Under the pieces are notes generated by a model. The model saw only the letters and a list, made by a program, of their open reading frames with translations. It was not told where the DNA came from and ran no database searches. This document shows, piece after piece, positions 7,202 to 41,978 of a stretch of 64,000 nucleotides of DNA. Both the position numbers and the translations under genes were made by a program. The stretch is from the NCBI RefSeq assembly GCF_022846255.1, contig NZ_AP025682.1; one strand, written 5' to 3'. This DNA is from Escherichia coli (lineage in GTDB: Bacteria > Pseudomonadota > Gammaproteobacteria > Enterobacterales > Enterobacteriaceae). Each line of letters begins with the position of its first letter. Position 1 is the stretch's first letter.

Positions 7202-7232
7202 TCTGTAGAAAAGTAAGATGAGGAGCGAAGGC

Positions 7233-7874
7233 ATGAAACCATATCAGCGCCAGTTTATTGAATTTGCGCTTAGCAAGCAGGTGTTAAAGTTTGGCGAGTT
7301 TACGCTGAAGTCCGGGCGCAAAAGCCCCTATTTCTTCAACGCCGGGCTGTTTAATACCGGGCGCGATCTGGCACTGTTAGGCCGTTTTTACGCTGAAGCA
7401 TTGGTGGATTCCGGCATTGAGTTCGATCTGCTGTTTGGCCCTGCTTACAAAGGGATCCCGATTGCCACCACAACTGCCGTGGCGCTGGCGGAGCATCATG
7501 ACCTGGACCTGCCGTACTGCTTTAACCGCAAAGAAGCAAAAGACCATGGTGAAGGTGGCAATCTGGTCGGTAGCGCGTTACAAGGACGCGTAATGCTGGT
7601 GGATGATGTGATCACCGCCGGAACGGCGATCCGCGAGTCGATGGAAATTATTCAGGCCAATGGCGCGACGCTGGCTGGCGTATTGATTTCGCTTGATCGT
7701 CAGGAACGCGGGCGCGGCGAGATTTCGGCGATTCAGGAAGTTGAGCGTGATTACAACTGCAAGGTGATCTCTATCATCACCCTGAAAGACCTGATTGCTT
7801 ACCTGGAAGAGAAGCCAGAAATGGCGGAACATCTGGCGGCGGTTAAGGCCTATCGCGAAGAGTTTGGCGTTTAA
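7233..7874 (+). CDS. pyrE: Orotate phosphoribosyltransferase
   Basis: [41 protein letters not shown]..., 213 aa from ATG 7233. Confidence 0.95.
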
Positions 7875-7910
7875 AGAAACTCGCCGGATGAAAAGTCATC
7901 CGGCGTCATA

Positions 7911-8507
7911 TTACTGCAACTGTGCGGCAATTAGCGGCCAGCGGGCGTCAAAATCATCCGTCGGGCGGTATTTAAACTCGCTGCGGACAAAGCGTGACAG
8001 CATACCTTCACAGAAGGCCAGCAACTGGCTTGCCAGCAGGGTTTCATCGGTGGTGTAACCTTCACCCTCACGCATTCTCTTTTCACGCAATACCTGACGC
8101 AACTGCGCTTCAATACGCTCGAACAGCTGGTTGATGCGCCCTTGCAGACGATCCTGTTCGAACATTAGCGCATGACCAGTGAGGATGCGAGTCAGGCCAG
8201 GATTACGCTCACCAAAACCGAGAAGCAGCAACACAATCAGACGCAGGCGCGCTGTGGTGTCCTTCTCATCTTTCAGAATCAGATTGATGCGAGTAATCAG
8301 GCTATCTTCGATAAACTCAATCAGGCTATCGAACATGCGGGTCTTACTGGGGAAGTGGCGATACAGTGCCGCTTCGGAAACGCCGACAGAGGCGGCCAGT
8401 TTTGCCGTCGTGATACGTTGGCTTCCATCGCTGGATTCCAGCATCAGCGCCAGAGACTGAAGTATTTCCTCGCGACGGTTCCTTTTCGCAGTTTGTTTTT
8501 CTGCCAT
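7911..8507 (-). CDS. slmA: Nucleoid occlusion factor SlmA (TetR family)
   Basis: ORF contains [52 protein letters not shown]...; 198 aa. Confidence 0.9.
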
Positions 8508-8613
8508 GTTACAAAATACCCCTGAAAATAAGCACTTGCCAGGCGGCACCCACGCTATGACCGCAAACGAAATGTTTGCGGCTATGTTATGACGTTATTC
8601 GGATGCGTATGTG

Positions 8614-14775: not shown

Positions 14776-14825
14776 AGTGCGGTATCAGTATTCAGGTAGC
14801 TGTTGAGCCTGGGGCGGTAGCGTGC
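14776..14825 (+). promoter_or_regulatory. JUMPstart region with ops element GGCGGTAGCGTG (14813-14824) in the waaQ operon leader
   Basis: Exact 12-nt ops sequence about 50-100 nt upstream of the waaQ start on the coding strand; RfaH-dependent antitermination is established for waaQ operons. Confidence 0.7.
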
Positions 14826-14873: not shown

Positions 14874-15932
14874 GTGGATAAGCCATTTCGAAGAATTTTG
14901 CTCATTAAGATGCGTTTTCATGGGGATATGTTATTAACTACTCCCGTCATTAGTTCGCTGAAAAAAAATTACCCTGACGCAAAAATCGATGTGCTGCTTT
15001 ATCAGGACACCATCCCGATCCTGTCTGAAAATCCAGAGATTAACGCGCTCTACGGCATAAAAAATAAAAAAGCAAAAGCTTCAGAAAAAATTGCCAACTT
15101 TTTTCATCTCATCAAGGTATTACGTGCCAATAAGTATGACCTTATCGTTAATCTTACCGATCAATGGATGGTTGCTATACTGGTTCGCTTATTAAATGCC
15201 CGTGTGAAAATTTCCCAGGATTATCATCATCGGCAGTCTGCTTTTTGGCGTAATAGTTTCACTCATTTGGTGCCGTTGCAGGGTGGAAATGTGGTGGAAA
15301 GTAACTTATCCGTGCTGACGCCATTGGGACTTGAATCGTTGGTGAAGCAGACAACCATGAGTTACCCGCCTGCAAGCTGGAAACGTATGCGTCGCGAACT
15401 TGATCACGCTGGTGTTGGACAAAATTATGTGGTTATCCAACCTACGGCGCGGCAAATCTTCAAATGCTGGGACAACGCCAAGTTTTCCGCTGTGATTGAT
15501 GCCTTACATGCTCGTGGTTATGAAGTCGTTCTGACGTCCGGCCCAGATAAAGACGATCTGGCCTGCGTCAATGAAATTGCGCAGGGATGCCAGACGCCAC
15601 CAGTAACGGCGCTGGCCGGAAAGGTGACCTTCCCGGAACTTGGTGCGTTAATCGATCATGCGCAGCTGTTTATTGGCGTTGATTCCGCACCGGCGCATAT
15701 TGCCGCTGCAGTTAATACGCCGCTGATATCGCTGTTTGGTGCGACAGACCATATTTTCTGGCGTCCCTGGTCAAATAACATGATTCAATTCTGGGCGGGA
15801 GATTACCGGGAAATGCCAACGCGCGATCAGCGTGACCGAAATGAGATGTATCTTTCGGTTATTCCGGCGGCAGATGTCATTGCTGCTGTCGATAAATTAC
15901 TGCCCTCCTTCACGACAGGTACGTCGTTATGA
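14874..15932 (+). CDS. waaQ: LPS heptosyltransferase III WaaQ
   Basis: ORF ...MRFHGDMLLTTPVISSLKKNYPDAKIDVLLYQD...; start ambiguous: GTG 14874, TTG 14898 or ATG 14910. Confidence 0.9.
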   Translation: MDKPFRRILLIKMRFHGDMLLTTPVISSLKKNYPDAKIDVLLYQDTIPILSENPEINALYGIKNKKAKASEKIANFFHLIKVLRANKYDLIVNLTDQWMVAILVRLLNARVKISQDYHHRQSAFWRNSFTHLVPLQGGNVVESNLSVLTPLGLESLVKQTTMSYPPASWKRMRRELDHAGVGQNYVVIQPTARQIFKCWDNAKFSAVIDALHARGYEVVLTSGPDKDDLACVNEIAQGCQTPPVTALAGKVTFPELGALIDHAQLFIGVDSAPAHIAAAVNTPLISLFGATDHIFWRPWSNNMIQFWAGDYREMPTRDQRDRNEMYLSVIPAADVIAAVDKLLPSFTTGTSL

Positions 15933-17053
15933 TCGTTGCTTTTTGTTTATATAAATATTTTCCCTTTGGCGGTTTGCAGCGCGATTTTATGCGCATTGCT
16001 CAGACAGTCGCCGCCCGAGGTCATCATGTTCGGGTTTATGCCCAGTCGTGGGAAGGCGAATGCCCTGATGTATTTGAACTGATCAAAGTGCCGGTTAAAT
16101 CGCATACCAATCACGGGCGCAATGCGGAGTATTTTGCCTGGGTGCAAAAACATTTACGTGAACATCCCGTCGATAGAGTCGTTGGATTCAACAAAATGCC
16201 GGGGCTGGACGTTTATTATGCCGCTGATGTTTGTTATGCCGAGAAAGTAGCGCAGGAGAAAGGCTTTTTCTATCGCCTGACGTCACGTTATCGCCATTAT
16301 GCCGCCTTTGAGCGGGCAACCTTCGAACAGGGCAAGCCGACACAGCTGCTGATGCTGACAGATAAGCAAATCGCCGATTTCCAGAAACATTATCAGACTG
16401 AAGCGGAGCGTTTTCATATTCTGCCACCGGGGATTTACCCTGATCGTAAATATAGCCAGCAGCCAGCCAATAGCCGTGAAATCTTCCGTAAGAAGAATGG
16501 AATAACCGAACAACAATATTTATTGTTGCAGGTCGGTTCAGACTTCACGCGTAAAGGTGTTGATCGTTCCATTGAAGCACTTGCTTCATTACCGGATTCG
16601 CTGCGCCACAACACATTGCTATATGTTGTTGGGCAGGATAAACCGCGAAAATTTGAGGCGCTGGCAGAAAAACGCGGCGTGCGCAGTAATGTTCACTTCT
16701 TCTCGGGGCGCAACGATGTCTCGGAATTAATGGCGGCGGCGGATTTATTACTGCATCCTGCCTACCAGGAAGCGGCGGGAATTGTGCTGCTGGAAGCGAT
16801 TACTGCAGGATTACCGGTACTAACAACAGCCGTTTGTGGCTATGCGCATTATATTGTTGACGCCAATTGCGGCGAGGCTATTGCTGAGCCATTCCGCCAG
16901 GAAACATTGAATGAGATTTTACGCAAAGCGTTAACGCAATCTTCATTGCGCCAGGCCTGGGCAGAAAATGCGCGACATTATGCTGATACACAAGATTTAT
17001 ACAGTCTGCCAGAGAAAGCAGCGGACATCATAACGGGTGGTCTGGATGGTTGA
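15929..17053 (+). CDS. waaG: LPS core glucosyltransferase I WaaG
   Basis: 374-aa [49 protein letters not shown]...; start overlaps the waaQ stop. Confidence 0.95.
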
Positions 17054-17843
17054 ACTTAAAGAGCCGTTTGCCACGTTATGGCGCGGTAAAGATCCTTTTG
17101 AGGAAGTTAAAACCTTGCAGGGTGAGGTATTTCGTGAACTGGAAACTCGCCGCACTCTGCGCTTTGAAATGGCGGGCAAAAGCTATTTTCTCAAATGGCA
17201 TCGCGGCACGACCCTGAAAGAGATAATCAAAAATTTACTCTCATTGCGGATGCCAGTATTAGGCGCAGACCGCGAATGGAATGCGATTCATCGACTGCGG
17301 GATGTCGGCGTTGATACTATGTATGGGGTGGCATTCGGCGAAAAAGGCATTAATCCGCTGACCAGAACCTCGTTTATTATTACCGAAGATCTGACACCAA
17401 CCATCAGTCTGGAAGATTACTGTGCTGACTGGGTGACCAACCCACCAGATGTTTGCGTAAAGCGTATGCTTATTAAGCGTGTCGCGACGATGGTGCGCGA
17501 TATGCATGCTGCGGGCATTAACCACCGTGACTGTTATATCTGTCATTTCCTGCTGCACTTGCCTTTTTCCAGTAAGGAAGAGGAGTTAAAAATTTCAGTA
17601 ATTGACCTGCACCGGGCGCAGCTTCGCACGCGCGTTCCACGTCGTTGGCGCGATAAAGATCTTATTGGGCTTTATTTTTCTTCGATGAATATCGGCCTGA
17701 CTCAGCGGGATATCTGGCGGTTTATGAAAGTGTATTTTGTCGCCCCGCTTAAAGACATTCTCAAGCAGGAACAAGGGCTGCTGTCGCAAGCAGAAGCAAA
17801 AGCCACAAAAATCAGGGAAAGAACGATTCGAAAATCGTTGTAA
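17046..17843 (+). CDS. waaP: LPS core heptose(I) kinase WaaP
   Basis: [57 protein letters not shown]...; overlaps the waaG stop. Confidence 0.95.
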
Positions 17844-17858
17844 TTTCCGGAGAGAAAT

Positions 17859-18875
17859 ATGAGTGCCCACTATTTTAATCCACAAGAGATGATCAATAAG
17901 ACAATCATCTTCGATGAAAGGCCAGCGGCGTCAGTGGCATCATCATTCCATGTTGCTTATGGCATTGATAAAAACTTTCTTTTTGGTTGTGGTGTTTCAA
18001 TCACGTCAGTTTTGTTACATAACAACGACGTGAGTTTTGTTTTCCACGTTTTTATTGATGATATCCCTGAAGCTGATATCCAGCGTTTAGCCCAATTGGC
18101 GAAAAGCTATCGTACCTGTATCCAGATCCATCTGGTAAATTGTGAACGGCTTAAGGCATTACCGACGACCAAAAATTGGTCTATTGCCATGTATTTCCGT
18201 TTTGTAATTGCAGATTACTTTATTGATCAACAAGATAAGATCCTTTACCTGGATGCTGATATCGCCTGTCAGGGAAACTTAAAGCCGCTGATAACAATGG
18301 ATCTTGCCAATAACGTTGCTGCTGTTGTTACTGAACGCGATGCTAACTGGTGGTCGTTACGGGGTCAAAGTCTGCAGTGTAATGAACTTGAAAAGGGTTA
18401 CTTTAATTCAGGTGTCCTGTTAATTAATACACTAGCGTGGGCGCAGGAGTCCGTTTCTGCTAAAGCGATGTCGATGCTTGCTGATAAAGCCATCGTTTCC
18501 CGTTTAACCTATATGGATCAAGATATCCTTAATCTTATCCTGTTAGGGAAAGTTAAATTCATTGATGCTAAATACAATACGCAATTTAGTTTAAATTATG
18601 AATTAAAAAAATCATTTGTTTGTCCAATTAATGATGAAACCGTATTAATTCATTATGTCGGCCCGACAAAACCCTGGCATTACTGGGCCGGTTATCCAAG
18701 TGCGCAACCTTTTATCAAAGCCAAAGAAGCATCGCCCTGGAAAAATGAACCGTTAATGCGGCCAGTTAACTCAAACTATGCTCGTTATTGCGCCAAGCAT
18801 AATTTTAAACAAAATAAACCAATTAACGGGATAATGAATTATATTTATTATTTTTATTTAAAGATAATAAAATGA
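17859..18875 (+). CDS. waaO: Outer-core family-8 glycosyltransferase, by position WaaO (alpha-1,3-glucosyltransferase)
   Basis: 338-aa ORF with GT8 hallmarks (YGIDKNFLFG..., YLDADI..., NSGVLLIN); first gene after waaP as in R1/R4 core loci; assignment rests on family plus gene order. Confidence 0.7.
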   Translation: MSAHYFNPQEMINKTIIFDERPAASVASSFHVAYGIDKNFLFGCGVSITSVLLHNNDVSFVFHVFIDDIPEADIQRLAQLAKSYRTCIQIHLVNCERLKALPTTKNWSIAMYFRFVIADYFIDQQDKILYLDADIACQGNLKPLITMDLANNVAAVVTERDANWWSLRGQSLQCNELEKGYFNSGVLLINTLAWAQESVSAKAMSMLADKAIVSRLTYMDQDILNLILLGKVKFIDAKYNTQFSLNYELKKSFVCPINDETVLIHYVGPTKPWHYWAGYPSAQPFIKAKEASPWKNEPLMRPVNSNYARYCAKHNFKQNKPINGIMNYIYYFYLKIIK

Positions 18876-18891
18876 AATTGAGAAAAGTTAA

Positions 18892-19887
18892 ATGAATGAA
18901 TTTATAAAAGAACGGTTTTCGTATTTAGCAGATAATAAAAAAGAAAACGCCCCAGAGCTAAATGTTTCCTACGGTATCGATAAGAATTTTTTGTATGGTG
19001 CTGGCGTTTCAATTTCTTCCGTTTTGATTAATAATTCAGATATTAATTTTGTCTTTCATGTTTTCACTGATTATGTGGATGATGATTATTTAAAGTCATT
19101 TAATGAAACAGCAAAACAATTTAATACCTCAATTATTGTATATTTAATTGACCCCAAATACTTTGCTGATCTGCCGACGTCACAGTTTTGGTCGTACGCG
19201 ACATACTTCAGGGTATTGTCTTTTGAATATCTGAGTGAAAGTATTTCCACACTGCTGTATCTGGATGCCGATGTTGTTTGTAAAGGAAGCCTGAAACCTC
19301 TCACAGAAATTATATTTAAAGATGAGTTTGCTGCGGTCATTCCTGACAATGATAGTACTCAGGCGGCATGTGCAAAACGCCTCAACATTCCCGAAATGAA
19401 TGGACGTTATTTCAATGCAGGCGTTATCTATGTCAATCTTAAAAAATGGCATGAAGCAAATTTGACACCGTATTTACTCACGCTTTTACGAGGGGAAACT
19501 AAATATGGCTCTCTTAAATATTTAGATCAGGATGCGTTGAATATCGCATTTAATATGAATAATATCTACCTCGCGAAGGATTTTGATACTATTTATACCC
19601 TGAAAAACGAACTTCATGATCGTAGTCATCGAAAGTATCAGCAAACCATTACCGATAAAACAGTATTGATTCACTATACAGGGATAACTAAACCATGGCA
19701 TAGCTGGGCTGGATATCCGTCTGCATCATACTTTAATATCGCGCGTGAACAATCTCCCTGGAAGAAATATCCTCTTAAAGAGGCGCGGACTGTTGCAGAA
19801 ATGCAGAAACAATATAAGCATCTGTTTGCCCATGGTGAGTATATAAAAGGCATAACTTCATTAATTAAGTACAAGCTTAAGAAATAA
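18892..19887 (+). CDS. waaT: Outer-core family-8 glycosyltransferase, by position WaaT (alpha-1,2-galactosyltransferase)
   Basis: 331-aa GT8-like ORF (YGIDKNFLYGAGVSISS..., YLDADVVCKG, NAGVIYVN); second GT8 gene in the operon. Confidence 0.6.
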   Translation: MNEFIKERFSYLADNKKENAPELNVSYGIDKNFLYGAGVSISSVLINNSDINFVFHVFTDYVDDDYLKSFNETAKQFNTSIIVYLIDPKYFADLPTSQFWSYATYFRVLSFEYLSESISTLLYLDADVVCKGSLKPLTEIIFKDEFAAVIPDNDSTQAACAKRLNIPEMNGRYFNAGVIYVNLKKWHEANLTPYLLTLLRGETKYGSLKYLDQDALNIAFNMNNIYLAKDFDTIYTLKNELHDRSHRKYQQTITDKTVLIHYTGITKPWHSWAGYPSASYFNIAREQSPWKKYPLKEARTVAEMQKQYKHLFAHGEYIKGITSLIKYKLKK

Positions 19888-19896
19888 ATTACTCTT

Positions 19897-20589
19897 ATGA
19901 TTACAAGTATACGTTATCGCGGCTTCTCATTTTATTACAAAGATAATGATAATAAATATAAAAAAATCTTTGATGAAATACTGGCCTATAATTTTAAAAC
20001 AGTAAAAGTATTACGTAATATTGATGATACCAAAGTATCGTTGATTGATACGAAATATGGTCGCTATGTTTTTAAAGTCTTTGCTCCGAAAACGAAAAGG
20101 AATGAACGTTTTTTAAAATCTTTTGTAAAAGGTGACTACTATCAGAATTTGATCGTTGAAACCGATCGTGTCAGAAGTGCAGGTCTTACTTTTCCTAATG
20201 ATTTTTATTTTCTGGCTGAGCGTAAAATTTTCAACTATGCCAGTGTTTTTATCATGCTTATCGAGTATGTCGAGGGCGTAGAGCTCAATGATATGCCGAT
20301 TATTCCAGAAAATGTTAAAGCAGAAATTAAGGCTTCAATGGAAAAATTGCATGCCTTAAATATGCTATCGGGCGACCCACACCGGGGTAACTTTATCGTT
20401 AGTAAAGATGGTGTCAGGATAATTGACCTATCCGGTAAAAGCTGTACGGCAGAGCGTAAAGCTCGTGATCGTCTGGCCATGGAACGTCACCTGGGTATTG
20501 CCAACGAAATAAAAGATTATGGCTACTATTCAGTAATCTACAGAACCAAACTACGCAAATTTATTAAAAAATTAAAAGGCAAAGCGTAA
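19897..20589 (+). CDS. waaY: LPS core heptose(II) kinase WaaY
   Basis: 230-aa ORF MITSIRYRGFSFYYKDNDNKYKKIFDEILAY... with kinase-like motifs (HGDPHRGNF); right size and position for WaaY. Confidence 0.8.
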   Translation: MITSIRYRGFSFYYKDNDNKYKKIFDEILAYNFKTVKVLRNIDDTKVSLIDTKYGRYVFKVFAPKTKRNERFLKSFVKGDYYQNLIVETDRVRSAGLTFPNDFYFLAERKIFNYASVFIMLIEYVEGVELNDMPIIPENVKAEIKASMEKLHALNMLSGDPHRGNFIVSKDGVRIIDLSGKSCTAERKARDRLAMERHLGIANEIKDYGYYSVIYRTKLRKFIKKLKGKA

Positions 20590-20614
20590 ACCACACAGTC
20601 AAAACGGAACCAAC

Positions 20615-21643
20615 ATGGATTTATTAGCTGAGAGTATTACTGAAGTCGCTGTCTCTGGGGAAATTGCTAACACCGATCGTGTGTTAAATATCGCTTACGG
20701 TATTGACCGCAACTTTTTATTTGGTGCGGCAGTATCTATGCAATCAGTTGTTATGCATAACCCGGACCTTGCGGTTAAGTTTCATCTCTTTACTGACTAC
20801 ATTGATGAAGATTATCTACAACGTGTTAATGCTTTTACCAGCAAAAATGCTAACGTTGAAGTAAGAATTTATAAAGTATCCAGTGCCTTTATTGATATCT
20901 TCCCCAGCCTGAAACAGTGGTCTTATGCAACATTCTTCCGTTTAGTTGCGTTCCAGTATCTGAGTGAAACTATTGAAAATCTGTTATATATCGATGCTGA
21001 TGTCATCTGTAAAGGCTCATTAGCTGGATTGCTTGATATTAATTTTGATGGCGATAAGTTCGCAGCTGTTATTAAAGATGTGCCTTTTATGCAGGAAAAA
21101 CCAGCGAAGCGTCTGGCTATAGAGGGGCTTCCAGGGAATTATTTCAACGCCGGTGTAGTATATCTGCAGCTTGAAGCATGGGCGAAAAATGATTTTATGA
21201 ATAAAGCCATTGCTATGCTGGCAAGTGACCCGCAGCACACGAAATATAAATGCCTTGACCAGGATATTTTAAATATTCTGTTCTTTGGTCATTGTATTTT
21301 TATTAGCGGCGATTATGATTGCTTTTATGGCATTGACTATGAGTTAAAAAATAAAAGCGATGAAGATTATAAAAAGACCATTACCGATGATACTAAGCTG
21401 ATTCATTATGTTGGCGTAACGAAGCCCTGGAACGACTGGACGAATTATCCCTGCCAGAAGTATTTTAATGAGGCTTATCAGGCTTCTTGCTGGAATGATG
21501 TGGCGTTTATTCCAGCAACGAATGAAAAGCAGTATCAAGTGAAATCCAGACATTTGAAAAGAAATGGTAAAATTGCATCTTCATTTTACTATTTCATGCT
21601 CTATTATAGTAAGAAAATAGCGCGTAAGCATTTTTCCAAATAA
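20615..21643 (+). CDS. waaW: Outer-core family-8 glycosyltransferase, by position WaaW (alpha-1,2-galactosyltransferase)
   Basis: 342-aa GT8-like ORF (YGIDRNFLFGAAVSMQS..., YIDADVICKG, NAGVVYLQ); third GT8 gene, following waaY. Confidence 0.6.
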   Translation: MDLLAESITEVAVSGEIANTDRVLNIAYGIDRNFLFGAAVSMQSVVMHNPDLAVKFHLFTDYIDEDYLQRVNAFTSKNANVEVRIYKVSSAFIDIFPSLKQWSYATFFRLVAFQYLSETIENLLYIDADVICKGSLAGLLDINFDGDKFAAVIKDVPFMQEKPAKRLAIEGLPGNYFNAGVVYLQLEAWAKNDFMNKAIAMLASDPQHTKYKCLDQDILNILFFGHCIFISGDYDCFYGIDYELKNKSDEDYKKTITDDTKLIHYVGVTKPWNDWTNYPCQKYFNEAYQASCWNDVAFIPATNEKQYQVKSRHLKRNGKIASSFYYFMLYYSKKIARKHFSK

Positions 21644-21674
21644 TTATTAAGATTAATCATCCAGAGATTTTTTA

Positions 21675-22448
21675 ATGAACTTGCCCATTTATATTGTCTC
21701 ACTTAAAAGAGATATTGAGCGAAGAAATAAAATAAATGATGTTTTTCATCGATTAAATATTAATTTTGATTTTTTTGATGCCATAGATGCTAAAGACCCT
21801 CAAAATAAAGAAATTATTGATAAAATGAGATTAAGTGGTGTCGGCGCAGAAATGACTGATGGAGAAATTGCTTGTACATTAAGTCATCAGCTTATATATC
21901 AGGATATGATAGATAAAAATATAGAATGGGCAGTCATTCTCGAGGATGATGTTATCGTCAATGAGAGATTTAAAAAATTTCTGCAATATTTTAATCTTTC
22001 TGAAAAAGACAAGTTAAAACATAATAATTTGTATTTGCTTGGAGGACAGAAAGGATTACATGATTATCCGGTATTGGGGCAAAGCCTTTTTAGTAAAGTT
22101 AAGGTAAGTACTTGTACTTTTCGGCGTGTTAATTTCAATAAAAATAAAATTCGGCGTACATGTTCATATTTGATGAATAAAGATATGGCACAAAAGTTGC
22201 TCAAATTGACAATGGATTGTGGCACCTATCGAGCTGATAGCTGGAAGTTAATGCATCAACATAATATTATAAAAGATTTTTATTTAGACGAAATAATATT
22301 ACATCCTATTTTAAATGAGTTTAATAGTCACCTTGAAAGTGAAAGGCTTTTAATATCGGAAAAAAAACAACCCAGGACAAGGCTTCAGAAAAAAATGAAG
22401 TTTATACGTTCCTGGATAAAGGTGGCTTTTTTTTCTCTTTTGAAATGA
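21675..22448 (+). CDS. Family-25-like beta-glycosyltransferase (LgtB/Lic2A-like): WaaV (R1) or WaaX (R4)
   Basis: 257-aa ORF MNLPIYIVSLKRDIERRNKINDVF...FDFFDAIDAKD...ACTLSHQLIYQDMIDKN...AVILEDDVIV resembles LgtB-type transferases; I cannot tell WaaV from WaaX without a reference alignment. Confidence 0.7.
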   Translation: MNLPIYIVSLKRDIERRNKINDVFHRLNINFDFFDAIDAKDPQNKEIIDKMRLSGVGAEMTDGEIACTLSHQLIYQDMIDKNIEWAVILEDDVIVNERFKKFLQYFNLSEKDKLKHNNLYLLGGQKGLHDYPVLGQSLFSKVKVSTCTFRRVNFNKNKIRRTCSYLMNKDMAQKLLKLTMDCGTYRADSWKLMHQHNIIKDFYLDEIILHPILNEFNSHLESERLLISEKKQPRTRLQKKMKFIRSWIKVAFFSLLK

Positions 22449-22482
22449 GATTGTTAATTTAAATTTATTGTGAGATATTAAC

Positions 22483-23736
22483 GTGGAAGTAAAAATTGAG
22501 CAATTTCGAAATAACAGCTGTAATTTTATTTTTTTATTATATTTAATCGGTTTATTGTTTGTGCCAATTGATCTAAATATTACCACTAAAATAATTAATG
22601 CTACAGGTGCATTTTCTCTTTTTTTATTAATTGTAAATAACAAGCATAATTATAATAAAAATATCATTATATTAATTCTTGGCTTACTTCTTTTGGGTGC
22701 AATGAACCTGATATGGTATGAGTTTTATAAAACAGAAGATGTAGTATATAGAAATGCTTATCGAGGCTATCTTGAGTCTGGAAAACTATTAGTATTTAGC
22801 TCGTTGACATTTTTATTACTAAGTAAAAATAAATTCAGGCAAAATGAAAAGCTACATTTTATTTCAGCTATCTTAGTTCAAATAATCATGCTATGTAGAG
22901 CATATTATCAAGGGATATATTTGCATGCAGACCGCATTCCCCTCTCCGCCATGAATGGGAATATTGGTCAGATGGGGGCAGCGACTATTGCGGCTTATGT
23001 GATTACATTCACTACTTTATATTCTTCAATTGTATTCATCAAAATGCAATCGAAATATAAATGGTTTCTATTTTATGCTAACTTTGCTTTAAGCTTTGCA
23101 GCAGTAATGATGACAGGAACACGTGCGGCAATTTTCACATTCCCACTTATGATTATGGTCATATTATTTCTTCAGCATCGTGATCAAAAAGTGTTTTTAT
23201 TTAAAGGATTGAGTGGTGTTTTTATATTGCTACTTGCTTGTGGTTTGATATTTAATAAGGAAATTGAGAGGCGAATTAATTCATTAAAAGCTGATGTTAT
23301 TTCATATGCTACAAAAAATAACAGTCAATCCTCGGTCGGAGCACGTTTTGCAATGGTTAATGCAGGAATTAAAGGAAGTCCTGATGGTTTTAATTGGCAA
23401 TCTCTTGAGCAGCGTGCTGAAAAGATAAAAGCATTAAGTGCAGAAAATAATATTTATAGTGGAGCTTTATTATTCCTTGATGTACATATGCATAATGAAA
23501 TTGTTGAATCTCTTTCCACGAAAGGAAAAATTGGTCTTCTTGTTCTTATTATGTTCTATGTTGCAATGATCTATTACTGTATCCGGGAGAAAAAATATAT
23601 ACTCTTGGTTTTCCCTGCTTCTATTATGTTATTTGGCATTAGTGATGTCATTACACATGCTAAACCAATACCGGCATCGTGGATTGTGTGCCTCTTCCTG
23701 TCTATATCGTTTTTGAGTAAAAAAGAACCACAATAA
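22483..23736 (+). CDS. waaL: O-antigen ligase WaaL (polytopic membrane protein)
   Basis: 417-aa, highly hydrophobic, AT-rich ORF at the end of the central waa operon; the track start is a GTG at 22483 and the true start is uncertain; called from position and topology rather than sequence identity. Confidence 0.7.
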   Translation: MEVKIEQFRNNSCNFIFLLYLIGLLFVPIDLNITTKIINATGAFSLFLLIVNNKHNYNKNIIILILGLLLLGAMNLIWYEFYKTEDVVYRNAYRGYLESGKLLVFSSLTFLLLSKNKFRQNEKLHFISAILVQIIMLCRAYYQGIYLHADRIPLSAMNGNIGQMGAATIAAYVITFTTLYSSIVFIKMQSKYKWFLFYANFALSFAAVMMTGTRAAIFTFPLMIMVILFLQHRDQKVFLFKGLSGVFILLLACGLIFNKEIERRINSLKADVISYATKNNSQSSVGARFAMVNAGIKGSPDGFNWQSLEQRAEKIKALSAENNIYSGALLFLDVHMHNEIVESLSTKGKIGLLVLIMFYVAMIYYCIREKKYILLVFPASIMLFGISDVITHAKPIPASWIVCLFLSISFLSKKEPQ

Positions 23737-23751
23737 TAAAAGCGTTGACTA

Positions 23752-23778
23752 AGTAAGTGGGTATAATGCCCACTTACT
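23752..23778. terminator. Hairpin AGTAAGTGGG-N7-CCCACTTACT between convergent waaL and waaC
   Basis: Perfect 10-bp inverted repeat in the 47-bp gap between the two stops; possible bidirectional terminator, inferred. Confidence 0.4.
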
Positions 23779-23783
23779 ATTTA

Positions 23784-24743
23784 TTAAATCAATGTGATTT
23801 TTTTATAAACAGCCGCTGCTTCTAAATTATTTAAATTCATTAGCGGAGCCCTACAAACCATCTGATTCTTCCCATACCCACCAATTAATCCCGGATCGGT
23901 AGGTCCATAAACCGTGATATTGGGTCTATCCAGTGCCGCCGTTAAATGGCTTAACCCCGTATCCACCGACACTACAAATTTAGCCCCGGCCAGTACGCGG
24001 GCAACGCCTTCCAGACTCATCTTCGGCAATACTTCAACATAAGCAAATCCTTCCGCCAGTCGTTTCGCCCGTTCTTCCTCATGCGGCGCGCCCCACGGAA
24101 GTTTAATCCGTATTCCTGAATCAGCCAGTAAACCAATCAATTCTCGCCAGTGTTCTTCCGGCCAGTGTTTATCATCTCGGGTTGTTGCATGAAGAAATAC
24201 GGCATATTCGCCAGCATCTGTAGGCAGGTTCGTCAGGAAATGCTGTGCGATAGCATAATCGCCCTGGGTTTGTGGTTTGCTATAGCCCAGACTTTTGGCA
24301 AACAGTTCGCGGGTGCGTTCTACGGCGTGCTGCTGTTTTGCAATATGATGTTTACGATTGTAAAACAGGCTGGCTAACGGTTCGCGAGCGGTTTGCCAGT
24401 CCATTCCATGCTTTACGCCATGCGCCAGACGCGTCACCAGCGCCGCGCTTTTTACCAGCCCCTGGGCGTCGATAACTGCGTCATAGTTCTTTGCTTGTAG
24501 CGCTTCACGAAACGCTTTGCGTTCAGCTTTTATGGGAGCCGAGAACCAGGCTTTACGCCAGCGACGTATTGCCACAGGAATAACTCGCTCAACGGCAGCG
24601 TGCCAGGAAGGAATCTGTGCGAACCCTTCTTCCACCACCCAGTCAAACTTAATCCCTGGGATTGCCTGCTGGGCATCAGTGAGTGCGGGCAGCGTGTGGA
24701 GAACATCGCCCATCGACGATGTTTTAACGATCAGAACCCGCAT
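23784..24743 (-). CDS. waaC: LPS heptosyltransferase I WaaC
   Basis: 319-aa ORF MRVLIVKTSSMGDVLHTLPALTDAQQAIPGIKFDWVVEEGFAQIPSWH... Confidence 0.9.
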   Translation of the reverse strand: MRVLIVKTSSMGDVLHTLPALTDAQQAIPGIKFDWVVEEGFAQIPSWHAAVERVIPVAIRRWRKAWFSAPIKAERKAFREALQAKNYDAVIDAQGLVKSAALVTRLAHGVKHGMDWQTAREPLASLFYNRKHHIAKQQHAVERTRELFAKSLGYSKPQTQGDYAIAQHFLTNLPTDAGEYAVFLHATTRDDKHWPEEHWRELIGLLADSGIRIKLPWGAPHEEERAKRLAEGFAYVEVLPKMSLEGVARVLAGAKFVVSVDTGLSHLTAALDRPNITVYGPTDPGLIGGYGKNQMVCRAPLMNLNNLEAAAVYKKITLI

Positions 24744-40323: not shown

Positions 40324-41978
40324 TAAGGAATCATCCACGTTAAGACATAGGCCTGAAGCGTGGTGATCACGCCCACCATACAGGTGAAGATCAGGCTGTG
40401 TTTGACAGTAAAGCGGAACAAATCAGACTCTTTGCCCACCAGGCCTACCGCCGCACAGGCGATAGCGATAGATTGCGGAGAGATCATTTTGCCGGTGACA
40501 CCACCGGTGGTGTTGGCAGCAACCAGCAACAGGTCAGAAACGCCAATTTGTTGTGCGGCGGTAGCCTGCAAAGCGGCAAACAAAGCATTAGATGACGTAT
40601 CCGACCCGGTCAGGAATACCCCAAGCCAGCCGAGGAACGGCGAGAAGAAGGTGAATGCATGACCGGTGTGCGCCAGTGCCAGCGCCAGTGTTGATGACAA
40701 ACCGGAATAGTTCGAGATAAAGGCGAACGCCAGCACCATACCGATGGAGTAGATAGGCAGAGCCAGTTCTTTCAGCGTGCTGCCGAAGGTGCTGATAGCG
40801 TCAGATGGTTTCATCTTCAGCCAGACAATCGAGAGCAGGGCAGCAAAAAGAATGGCGGTACCGGTGGCAGAGAACCAGTCAAACTTAAACACGGCGGCAT
40901 ACGCTGTCGCTTCGCTGACCACTGGCGGCATACGGGCAACCAGTTTATCGAGGTACGGCACCGGAATGTTGATCACCCACTCATACAGCGCACCGCCTGA
41001 AGCGAACAGGGCTTTAAACGGCGGGATACTCCACAGCGTTACGGTGGCGGTCAGGAACAGAAACGGTGTCCAGGCGCGCAGCACCTGACCTGCCGTGTAA
41101 CCTGTGTGAGCCAGCGTCATATCAACCTGTGACGCCCCCAAGTCACCGAAGCGGAATACGCGCACTGGTTGCCAGCGTTTGAGGAACAGCGTCAGGCAGA
41201 GCAGTGATACCAGCGAAGAGATAATGTCTGGCAGTTCCGGCCCAATGAAGTTAGAGCTGAGGTATTGAGCAATGGCAAACGAACCACCTGCAACCACGAC
41301 CGCAGGCCACGTCTCTTTGATACCGCGCCAACCGTCCATAATCGCCATGATCCAGAACAGCACGATAATGGTCATAAACGGCAGCTGACGCCCCACCATC
41401 TGACCAATCTCAAAGCTGTCGATGCCTGTTACCTGCCCGGCGACCAGAATCGGAATACCCATCGCGCCAAATGCCACTGGTGCGGTGTTAACAATCAGGC
41501 ACAGTCCGGCGGCGTAGAGTGGTTTAAAGCCCAGACCGACCAGCAATGCGGCGGTAATTGCTACCGGTGCGCCAAAGCCTGCGGCTCCTTCAAGGAAAGC
41601 GCCGAAACAGAAACCGACGATCAGCATTTGCAGGCGCTGGTCAGGGGTTATCGAAAGAATAGACGAGCGAATGATGTCAAACTGCCCGGTTTTCACCGAG
41701 ATCTTATAGACGAACACCGCTGCAATAATGATCCACGCGATGGGCCACAACCCGTAGAAGAAGCCATAAACCACCGAGGCCAGCGCGTTAGCGACCGGCA
41801 TTTTATAGAACAGCAAAGCCACGGCAAGGGCGATTGCCACCGTCCATGAGGCGGCGACGTATCCTTTCAGTTTGAGCTTAATCAGCGCAAAGAAGAAAAA
41901 CAGGATGGGAAGCGATGCTATCAGGCTGGAAAGCCAGATATTCCCGGCGGGATCGTAGTTTTGTTGCCAGAGATTCAT
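40323..41978 (-). CDS. lldP: L-lactate permease
   Basis: ORF contains [44 protein letters not shown]...; 551 aa, polytopic. Confidence 0.95.

Follow-up and report, generated by a model that had tools for sequence, protein, structure and literature searches.

The open reading frame at 21675-22448 (+ strand) of the window, a stretch of 64,000 nucleotides of Escherichia coli DNA from contig NZ_AP025682.1, is almost certainly waaX, the gene of the R4-core-specific glycosyltransferase of family GT25, and the source strain is, on the evidence of its genes, of R4 and not of R1 core genotype. An earlier note on this DNA had held that this frame decides between the R1 and R4 core types; four lines of evidence that are independent of each other, namely comparison with the R1 genome of strain CE10, the database entry Q9ZIS2, the sites of the typing primers and the distribution among complete genomes, settle that choice as WaaX and hence as an R4 genotype. 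The gene itself is ordinary and known: Heinrichs, Whitfield and co-workers reportedly described WaaX of the E. coli R4 core type in 1998, together with its gene, family and position and the part it plays in discriminating R1 from R4. The result on waaX thus brings no new biology, the discriminating role being part of current typing schemes (PMC13293308). Assigning the strain to R4 is useful for typing, for glycoconjugate work and for predicting susceptibility to core-recognising phages and antibodies.

The reading frame and its family

The waaX coding sequence, annotated here from its open reading frame and Pfam match as that of a GT25 beta-galactosyltransferase of the R4 outer core, begins with ATG and runs through 257 codons to a stop codon with its reading frame intact. 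The earlier note had recognized in the product of 257 residues the N-terminal pattern of LgtB/Lic2A-type transferases, and all three motifs it quoted are found, VSLKRDIERR at residues 8-17, FDFFDAID at 31-38 and ILEDDVIV at 88-95. The Pfam family Glyco_transf_25 (PF01755) matches residues 4-183 with an E value of 3.1e-50 and a score of 171.3 bits, which is far above chance, the curated gathering score being 24 bits, and profile positions 3-192 of 199 are covered. Membership in GT25, likewise proposed in the note, has been corroborated by this family match, by sequence similarity to the solved GT25 protein 8xc8, and by the fold matches in the PDB. The label 'glycosyltransferase family 25 protein' is attached to identical coordinates in a collinear complete E. 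coli genome (RefSeq), and to the same CDS in 691 of 5,426 complete E. coli genomes; NCBIfam models were found neither for the protein nor for its WaaL, and neither carries a curated equivalog name. The start codon and the length of 257 residues are shared with waaX orthologues of other genera. The protein cluster of WaaX also includes shorter members of 255 and 249 residues.

An AlphaFold2 model built with 46 homologues reached a mean pLDDT of 92.5 and a pTM of 0.88. Its best matches in the PDB belong to GT25 only, comprising the bacterial beta-1,4-galactosyltransferase 8xc8, 8xgx, 8xkd and 8xlz (Foldseek E 1e-11) and, also among the top matches, the mimivirus protein R655 and the human collagen galactosyltransferase COLGALT1; beyond this set follow more distant GT-A enzymes. 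At the level of sequence, 8xc8 aligns with residues 6-106 of WaaX (phmmer, E 5e-13), its EDD motif included; no publication on the 8xc8 structure came up in a search of the literature. The model has a GT-A fold with an acidic E-D-D motif after the fourth beta strand. From the alignment of homologues and the EDD of 8xc8, residues E90-D91-D92 (codons at 21942-21950, + strand) can be assigned as the DXD-type motif that binds metal and nucleotide sugar in GT-A enzymes. Invariant in the 46 homologues, which range from 97% to 24% identity, are A36, C67, H71, L89, E90, D91, D92 and Y165. Residues 236-254 are predicted to form a C-terminal helix, and the last 30 residues carry a net charge of +9; such a basic C-terminus would fit a peripheral association with the membrane, as is usual among transferases of the lipopolysaccharide core.

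Assignment to WaaX and the R4 cassette

The reference for the R1 type was the genome of E. coli O7:K1 CE10, in which the slot between waaW and waaL encodes a GT2 protein of 327 residues (Pfam PF00535, E 6e-40). Similarity between this protein and the window frame was not detectable by BLASTP, the best E value being 5.3, and WaaL of the window shares only 35% identity with its R1-type counterpart in CE10. The statement of the earlier note that the slot enzyme and WaaL distinguish R1 from R4 agrees well with these values. Its implication that both WaaV and WaaX are GT25-like stands for WaaX and falls for WaaV, as the R1-slot protein is a GT2 enzyme unlike the frame under study; since WaaV belongs to GT2, the assignment of the frame to GT25 by itself excludes WaaV. 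It is true that the frame occupies the same waaW-waaL position as waaV, and that the genes upstream are 99.3% identical to those of the R1 genome, as would be expected in an R1 strain if the frame encoded WaaV, the R1-core beta-glucosyltransferase. The probability of this reading is nevertheless practically nil in view of the unrelated GT2 protein in the CE10 slot and the strong divergence of the adjoining WaaL, to which is added that the R1 waaV primer has no site in the window at up to 3 mismatches.

The positive evidence for WaaX comes from the database entries. The commonest E. coli allele, WP_001052917.1 (locus L003), agrees at every residue with Q9ZIS2_ECOLX, the UniRef100 representative named 'Beta-1,4-galactosyltransferase', which, from its name and the era of its accession, we take to be the 1998 entry for F2513, the prototype strain of R4. 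In the pairwise alignment that had been proposed as a check, the window protein agrees with this allele over its full length at 249 of 257 positions, and the R1-slot protein yields no more than the E value of 5.3 given above. The exact protein of the window is public as BDH31270.1 / WP_244331630.1 and has been named 'beta1,4-galactosyltransferase WaaX' by one depositor.

The extent of the exchanged segment follows from a blastn comparison of the window with CE10, in which 15615-21568 is 99.3% identical and the sequence from 23844 onward 98.1% identical, with no blastn similarity between 21569 and 23843. As the flanks are 98-99% identical and nothing in between can be aligned, the R1 and R4 cluster types, as represented by CE10 and the window, are seen to differ by one exchanged cassette of 2,275 bp (21569-23843). 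This R4-specific cassette includes the 3' end of waaW, waaX, waaL, a terminator hairpin and the 3' end of waaC, its edges falling within ~30 codons of the end of waaW and within ~22 codons of the end of waaC; the WaaW protein is identical to R1 WaaW at 310 of 312 positions and then at just 12 of the last 30. The GC content drops to 27-34% in the four 600-bp bins covering 21600-23999 (about 30-32% for waaX and waaL), compared with 50-54% in the flanking waaC, waaF and hldD.

In the current typing scheme the R4 primers give a product of 380 bp (PMC13293308). Both sites of this pair are exact in the window, R1R4-R at 21484-21503 (+) and R4-F at 21845-21863 (-), such that the amplicon predicted in silico (21484-21863) has the published length of 380 bp; the R1 (waaV), R2, R3 and K-12 typing primers find no sites in the window at up to 3 mismatches.

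As for the population, waaX is present in 691 of 5,426 complete E. coli genomes (12.7%), and the whole waaW-waaX-waaL stretch in 690 of them, at 97-99.5% identity. In some 1,836 further genomes the match was confined to the initial 931-950 nt of waaW; CE10 behaves in the same way, and by this pattern these genomes are R1-like. The proportion of 690-691 in 5,426 is in agreement with published R4 frequencies of 5-26%, which vary by group. Strain ECOR46 has been reported to carry both waaV-waaL(R1) and waaX-waaL(R4) (PMC13293308). In a few genomes the waaX or waaW-waaX-waaL query matched at two or three places. The cassette was also encountered in the plasmid-labelled records NZ_CP070033.1, NZ_CP034391.1, NZ_CP059911.1 and NZ_CP134663.1; a plasmid-borne waaX, considered on account of three 'plasmid' matches, was rejected, the records being either 3-10 kb and non-mobilizable or 4.9 Mb in size, and evidently mislabelled pieces of chromosome. 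In the R4 genome NZ_CP104123.1 (locus L004, 7001-8010), waaW is a frameshifted pseudogene with an intact waaX directly downstream; the main outer-core chain of that strain would be truncated and the branch enzyme kept.

Operon context, proposed action and allele

The waaQ operon of the window (14874-23736, + strand) shows the gene order waaQ-G-P-O-T-Y-W-X-L of the R1/R4 types, as established from open reading frames, family matches and a collinear RefSeq locus. It consists of waaQ (14874-15932), waaG (15929-17053), waaP (start at 17037 or 17046, end at 17843), the GT8 genes waaO (17859-18875) and waaT (18892-19887), waaY (19897-20589), waaW (20615-21643; GT8 by Pfam, 342 residues, common to R1 and R4 save for the last ~30 codons), waaX and waaL (22483-23736), all on the + strand. 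The waaX gene is the eighth of these nine and is flanked by waaW directly upstream and by waaL. The latter encodes an R4-type O-antigen ligase of 417 residues, assigned from protein identities and from the Pfam family Wzy_C, for which the score of 30.7 bits lies slightly below the cut-off of 31.7 bits. After waaL, the genes waaC, waaF and hldD follow in convergent orientation on the - strand. WaaO matches the NCBIfam equivalog 'lipopolysaccharide 3-alpha-galactosyltransferase' with 612 bits against a cut-off of 461, and PGAP gives it the same name; in the R1/R4 literature WaaO is a glucosyltransferase, and the name of galactosyltransferase may be inaccurate in the R4 core type.

An ops element, GGCGGTAGCGTG, the loading site of RfaH, lies at 14813-14824 (+), 50 nt upstream of the start of waaQ, and matches GGCGGTAGNNTG exactly; the role of ops in RfaH-dependent operons is well established. 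A consensus scan for terminator-like sites on the + strand, from waaQ through the end of waaL, yielded none before a hairpin with a stem of 12 bp at 23752-23778, located between the convergent waaL and waaC and likely to act as a bidirectional terminator. With the ops element upstream of waaQ and no + strand terminator before 23752, waaX is most likely expressed within the RfaH-dependent waaQ operon. The ops pattern is matched once more by GGCGGTAGCCTG at 40557-40568 (+), within lldP, a gene of the opposite (-) strand; this site was set aside as probably due to chance, 0.12 matches being expected per window.

Near-identity to the reference protein, taken together with the literature, allows a reaction scheme to be proposed. 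WaaX would be a peripheral enzyme at the cytoplasmic face, which would use UDP-galactose as donor together with a divalent cation bound by E90-D91-D92, and would transfer the sugar by an inverting mechanism to give a beta linkage. The acceptor chain of the outer core would be built by WaaG, WaaO, WaaT and WaaW, and WaaX would place a beta-linked galactose as a side branch on GlcII, the second glucose of the outer core; the R4-type WaaL would then ligate O antigen onto the completed core. In this scheme it is waaX and the downstream R4-type waaL that would make the strain R4 rather than R1. The donor sugar within GT25 is not readable from sequence, and galactose is assigned to the window protein from its near-identity to the reference WaaX and from the literature; the family also holds glucosyltransferases, such as LpsA and Lex2B. 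LgtB can be promiscuous and accept UDP-glucose (PMC8243248). The linkage formed by WaaX is given as beta-1,4 in PMC13293308, in agreement with the database names, but as beta-1,3 in a review (PMC3526765).

Relative to the common allele, the WaaX of the window bears eight substitutions, Q76K, R98K, S109P, M180K, C182Y, D201E, I227T and K240R (window residue first), and with just 21 of 693 matching records at least 99% identical to the window gene it represents a minority allele. These eight differences, and the small number of close records, are what could favour a homologue of altered donor or acceptor specificity, defined by Q76, R98, S109, M180, C182, D201, I227 and K240 and leading to a core other than the canonical R4 one, the more so as in LpsA, a Haemophilus enzyme of GT25, single residues can switch between glucose and galactose. 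Such a change of specificity is very unlikely, however, for none of the eight positions falls in an invariant or nearly invariant column among the 46 homologues, and R98 and D201 are the majority states among orthologues from other genera. Furthermore, the dN/dS of the window allele against common alleles amounts to 0.2-0.3, evidently reflecting ordinary purifying selection on waaX, and the partner waaL, within the waaW-waaX-waaL stretch, is 98-99% identical to that of other R4 genomes.

The same selection bears on another alternative, according to which waaX would be present yet silent or inactivated and the core devoid of the branch. The gene has a GC content of ~30%, with homopolymer tracts near its 3' end (A8 at 22360-22367 and T8 at 22427-22434) that could slip, and its Shine-Dalgarno sequence is weak; phase variation by way of the two tracts was considered, but there is no sign of it. 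A loss of function is exceedingly unlikely all the same, given the full-length frame of the same length as in the orthologues, the intact catalytic motif E90-D91-D92, the lack of a + strand terminator upstream of waaX in the operon, and the evident purifying selection.

The only residue by which the window protein differs from that of the closest complete genome is M180, which is K180 there. Two further loci vary between the window and this genome, NZ_CP042896.1. Between pyrE and slmA it carries a gene for a 'reverse transcriptase family protein' of 319 residues (locus L009, 6610-7909); in the window this insertion is absent and pyrE (7218-7874) abuts slmA (7911-8549), the stretch compared being 7875-7910. 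The inserted gene could belong to a retron or defence island, present in some and absent from other strains that are otherwise nearly identical. The segment 42245-46860 of the window, the counterpart of a 4.6-kb gene for a YadA-like trimeric autotransporter, is 85-91% identical to the closest genome with many gaps, between flanks of about 98% identity, and looks like a hypervariable adhesin.

Relatives and comparison with known systems

Homologues of WaaX with 257-258 residues and 49-72% identity occur in several genera, among them Cedecea, Pluralibacter gergoviae, Citrobacter amalonaticus, Buttiauxella, Leclercia, Leminorella and Shimwellia. At all four loci examined (Cedecea, Pluralibacter, Citrobacter and Shimwellia), the waaX orthologue lies inside the waa cluster, directly upstream of waaL. 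The identities of WaaX and WaaL to the window proteins are 72/64% in Cedecea, 68/61% in Pluralibacter, 67/63% in Citrobacter and 49/48% in Shimwellia, values which co-vary across the four genera. A Serratia GT25 protein of 41% identity was not accepted as an orthologue; its gene belongs to a polysaccharide cluster with wzx, wza and wzc.

That WaaX and WaaL diverge in parallel from genus to genus, that the identity to R1 WaaL is only 35% and that the cassette is low in GC suggest that waaX-waaL could be a co-inherited module of two genes. We would give about even chances to the fuller proposal that the module has passed between genera of enterobacteria and entered an R1-like cluster of E. coli by recombination, the breakpoints lying inside waaW and waaC at their 3' ends, and that the window carries a minority allele of it which keeps the residues R98 and D201 of the other genera. 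Were it so, the branch transferase and the ligase able to accept its product core would travel together. A lateral origin of outer-core genes is a long-standing suggestion, and the module would be a modest refinement of this view and no new kind of system.

The closest known counterpart is the reference WaaX itself (Q9ZIS2), which has the same length of 257 residues, the same waaW-waaL position, the same R4-type waaL flank and the same PCR type as the window gene, and from which the latter departs at eight residues only, by conservative substitutions or at variable sites. The orthologues of Cedecea, Pluralibacter gergoviae, Citrobacter amalonaticus and Shimwellia blattae resemble it in their 257-258 residues and in having waaL next downstream; unlike in the window, however, the waa cluster of Cedecea has GT4 plus GT8 genes upstream and is without waaY, that of Pluralibacter has just two GT8 genes upstream, and in Shimwellia waaZ precedes the GT25 gene. 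Because the upstream sets of glycosyltransferases differ, the acceptor structure of these orthologues is probably not identical to that in E. coli.

Within the family at large, LgtB/LgtE of Neisseria, Lic2A/LpsA of Haemophilus and 8xc8 share with WaaX the Pfam family, the N-terminal pattern with its EDD and the GT-A fold. Their acceptors are unlike that of WaaX, and the enterobacterial WaaX group has, in contrast to them, a conserved basic C-terminal helix of its own; 8xc8 matches WaaX with a Foldseek probability of 1.0, yet at only about 20% identity across the fold. On the other hand, WaaV of the R1 type occupies the same operon slot as WaaX and plays an analogous role, the addition of a single beta-linked hexose to GlcII (PMC13293308, PMC3526765). 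It is, however, a GT2 protein of 327 residues with a sequence unrelated to that of WaaX, and the sugar it adds is glucose and not galactose; it is an analogue of WaaX and not a homologue.
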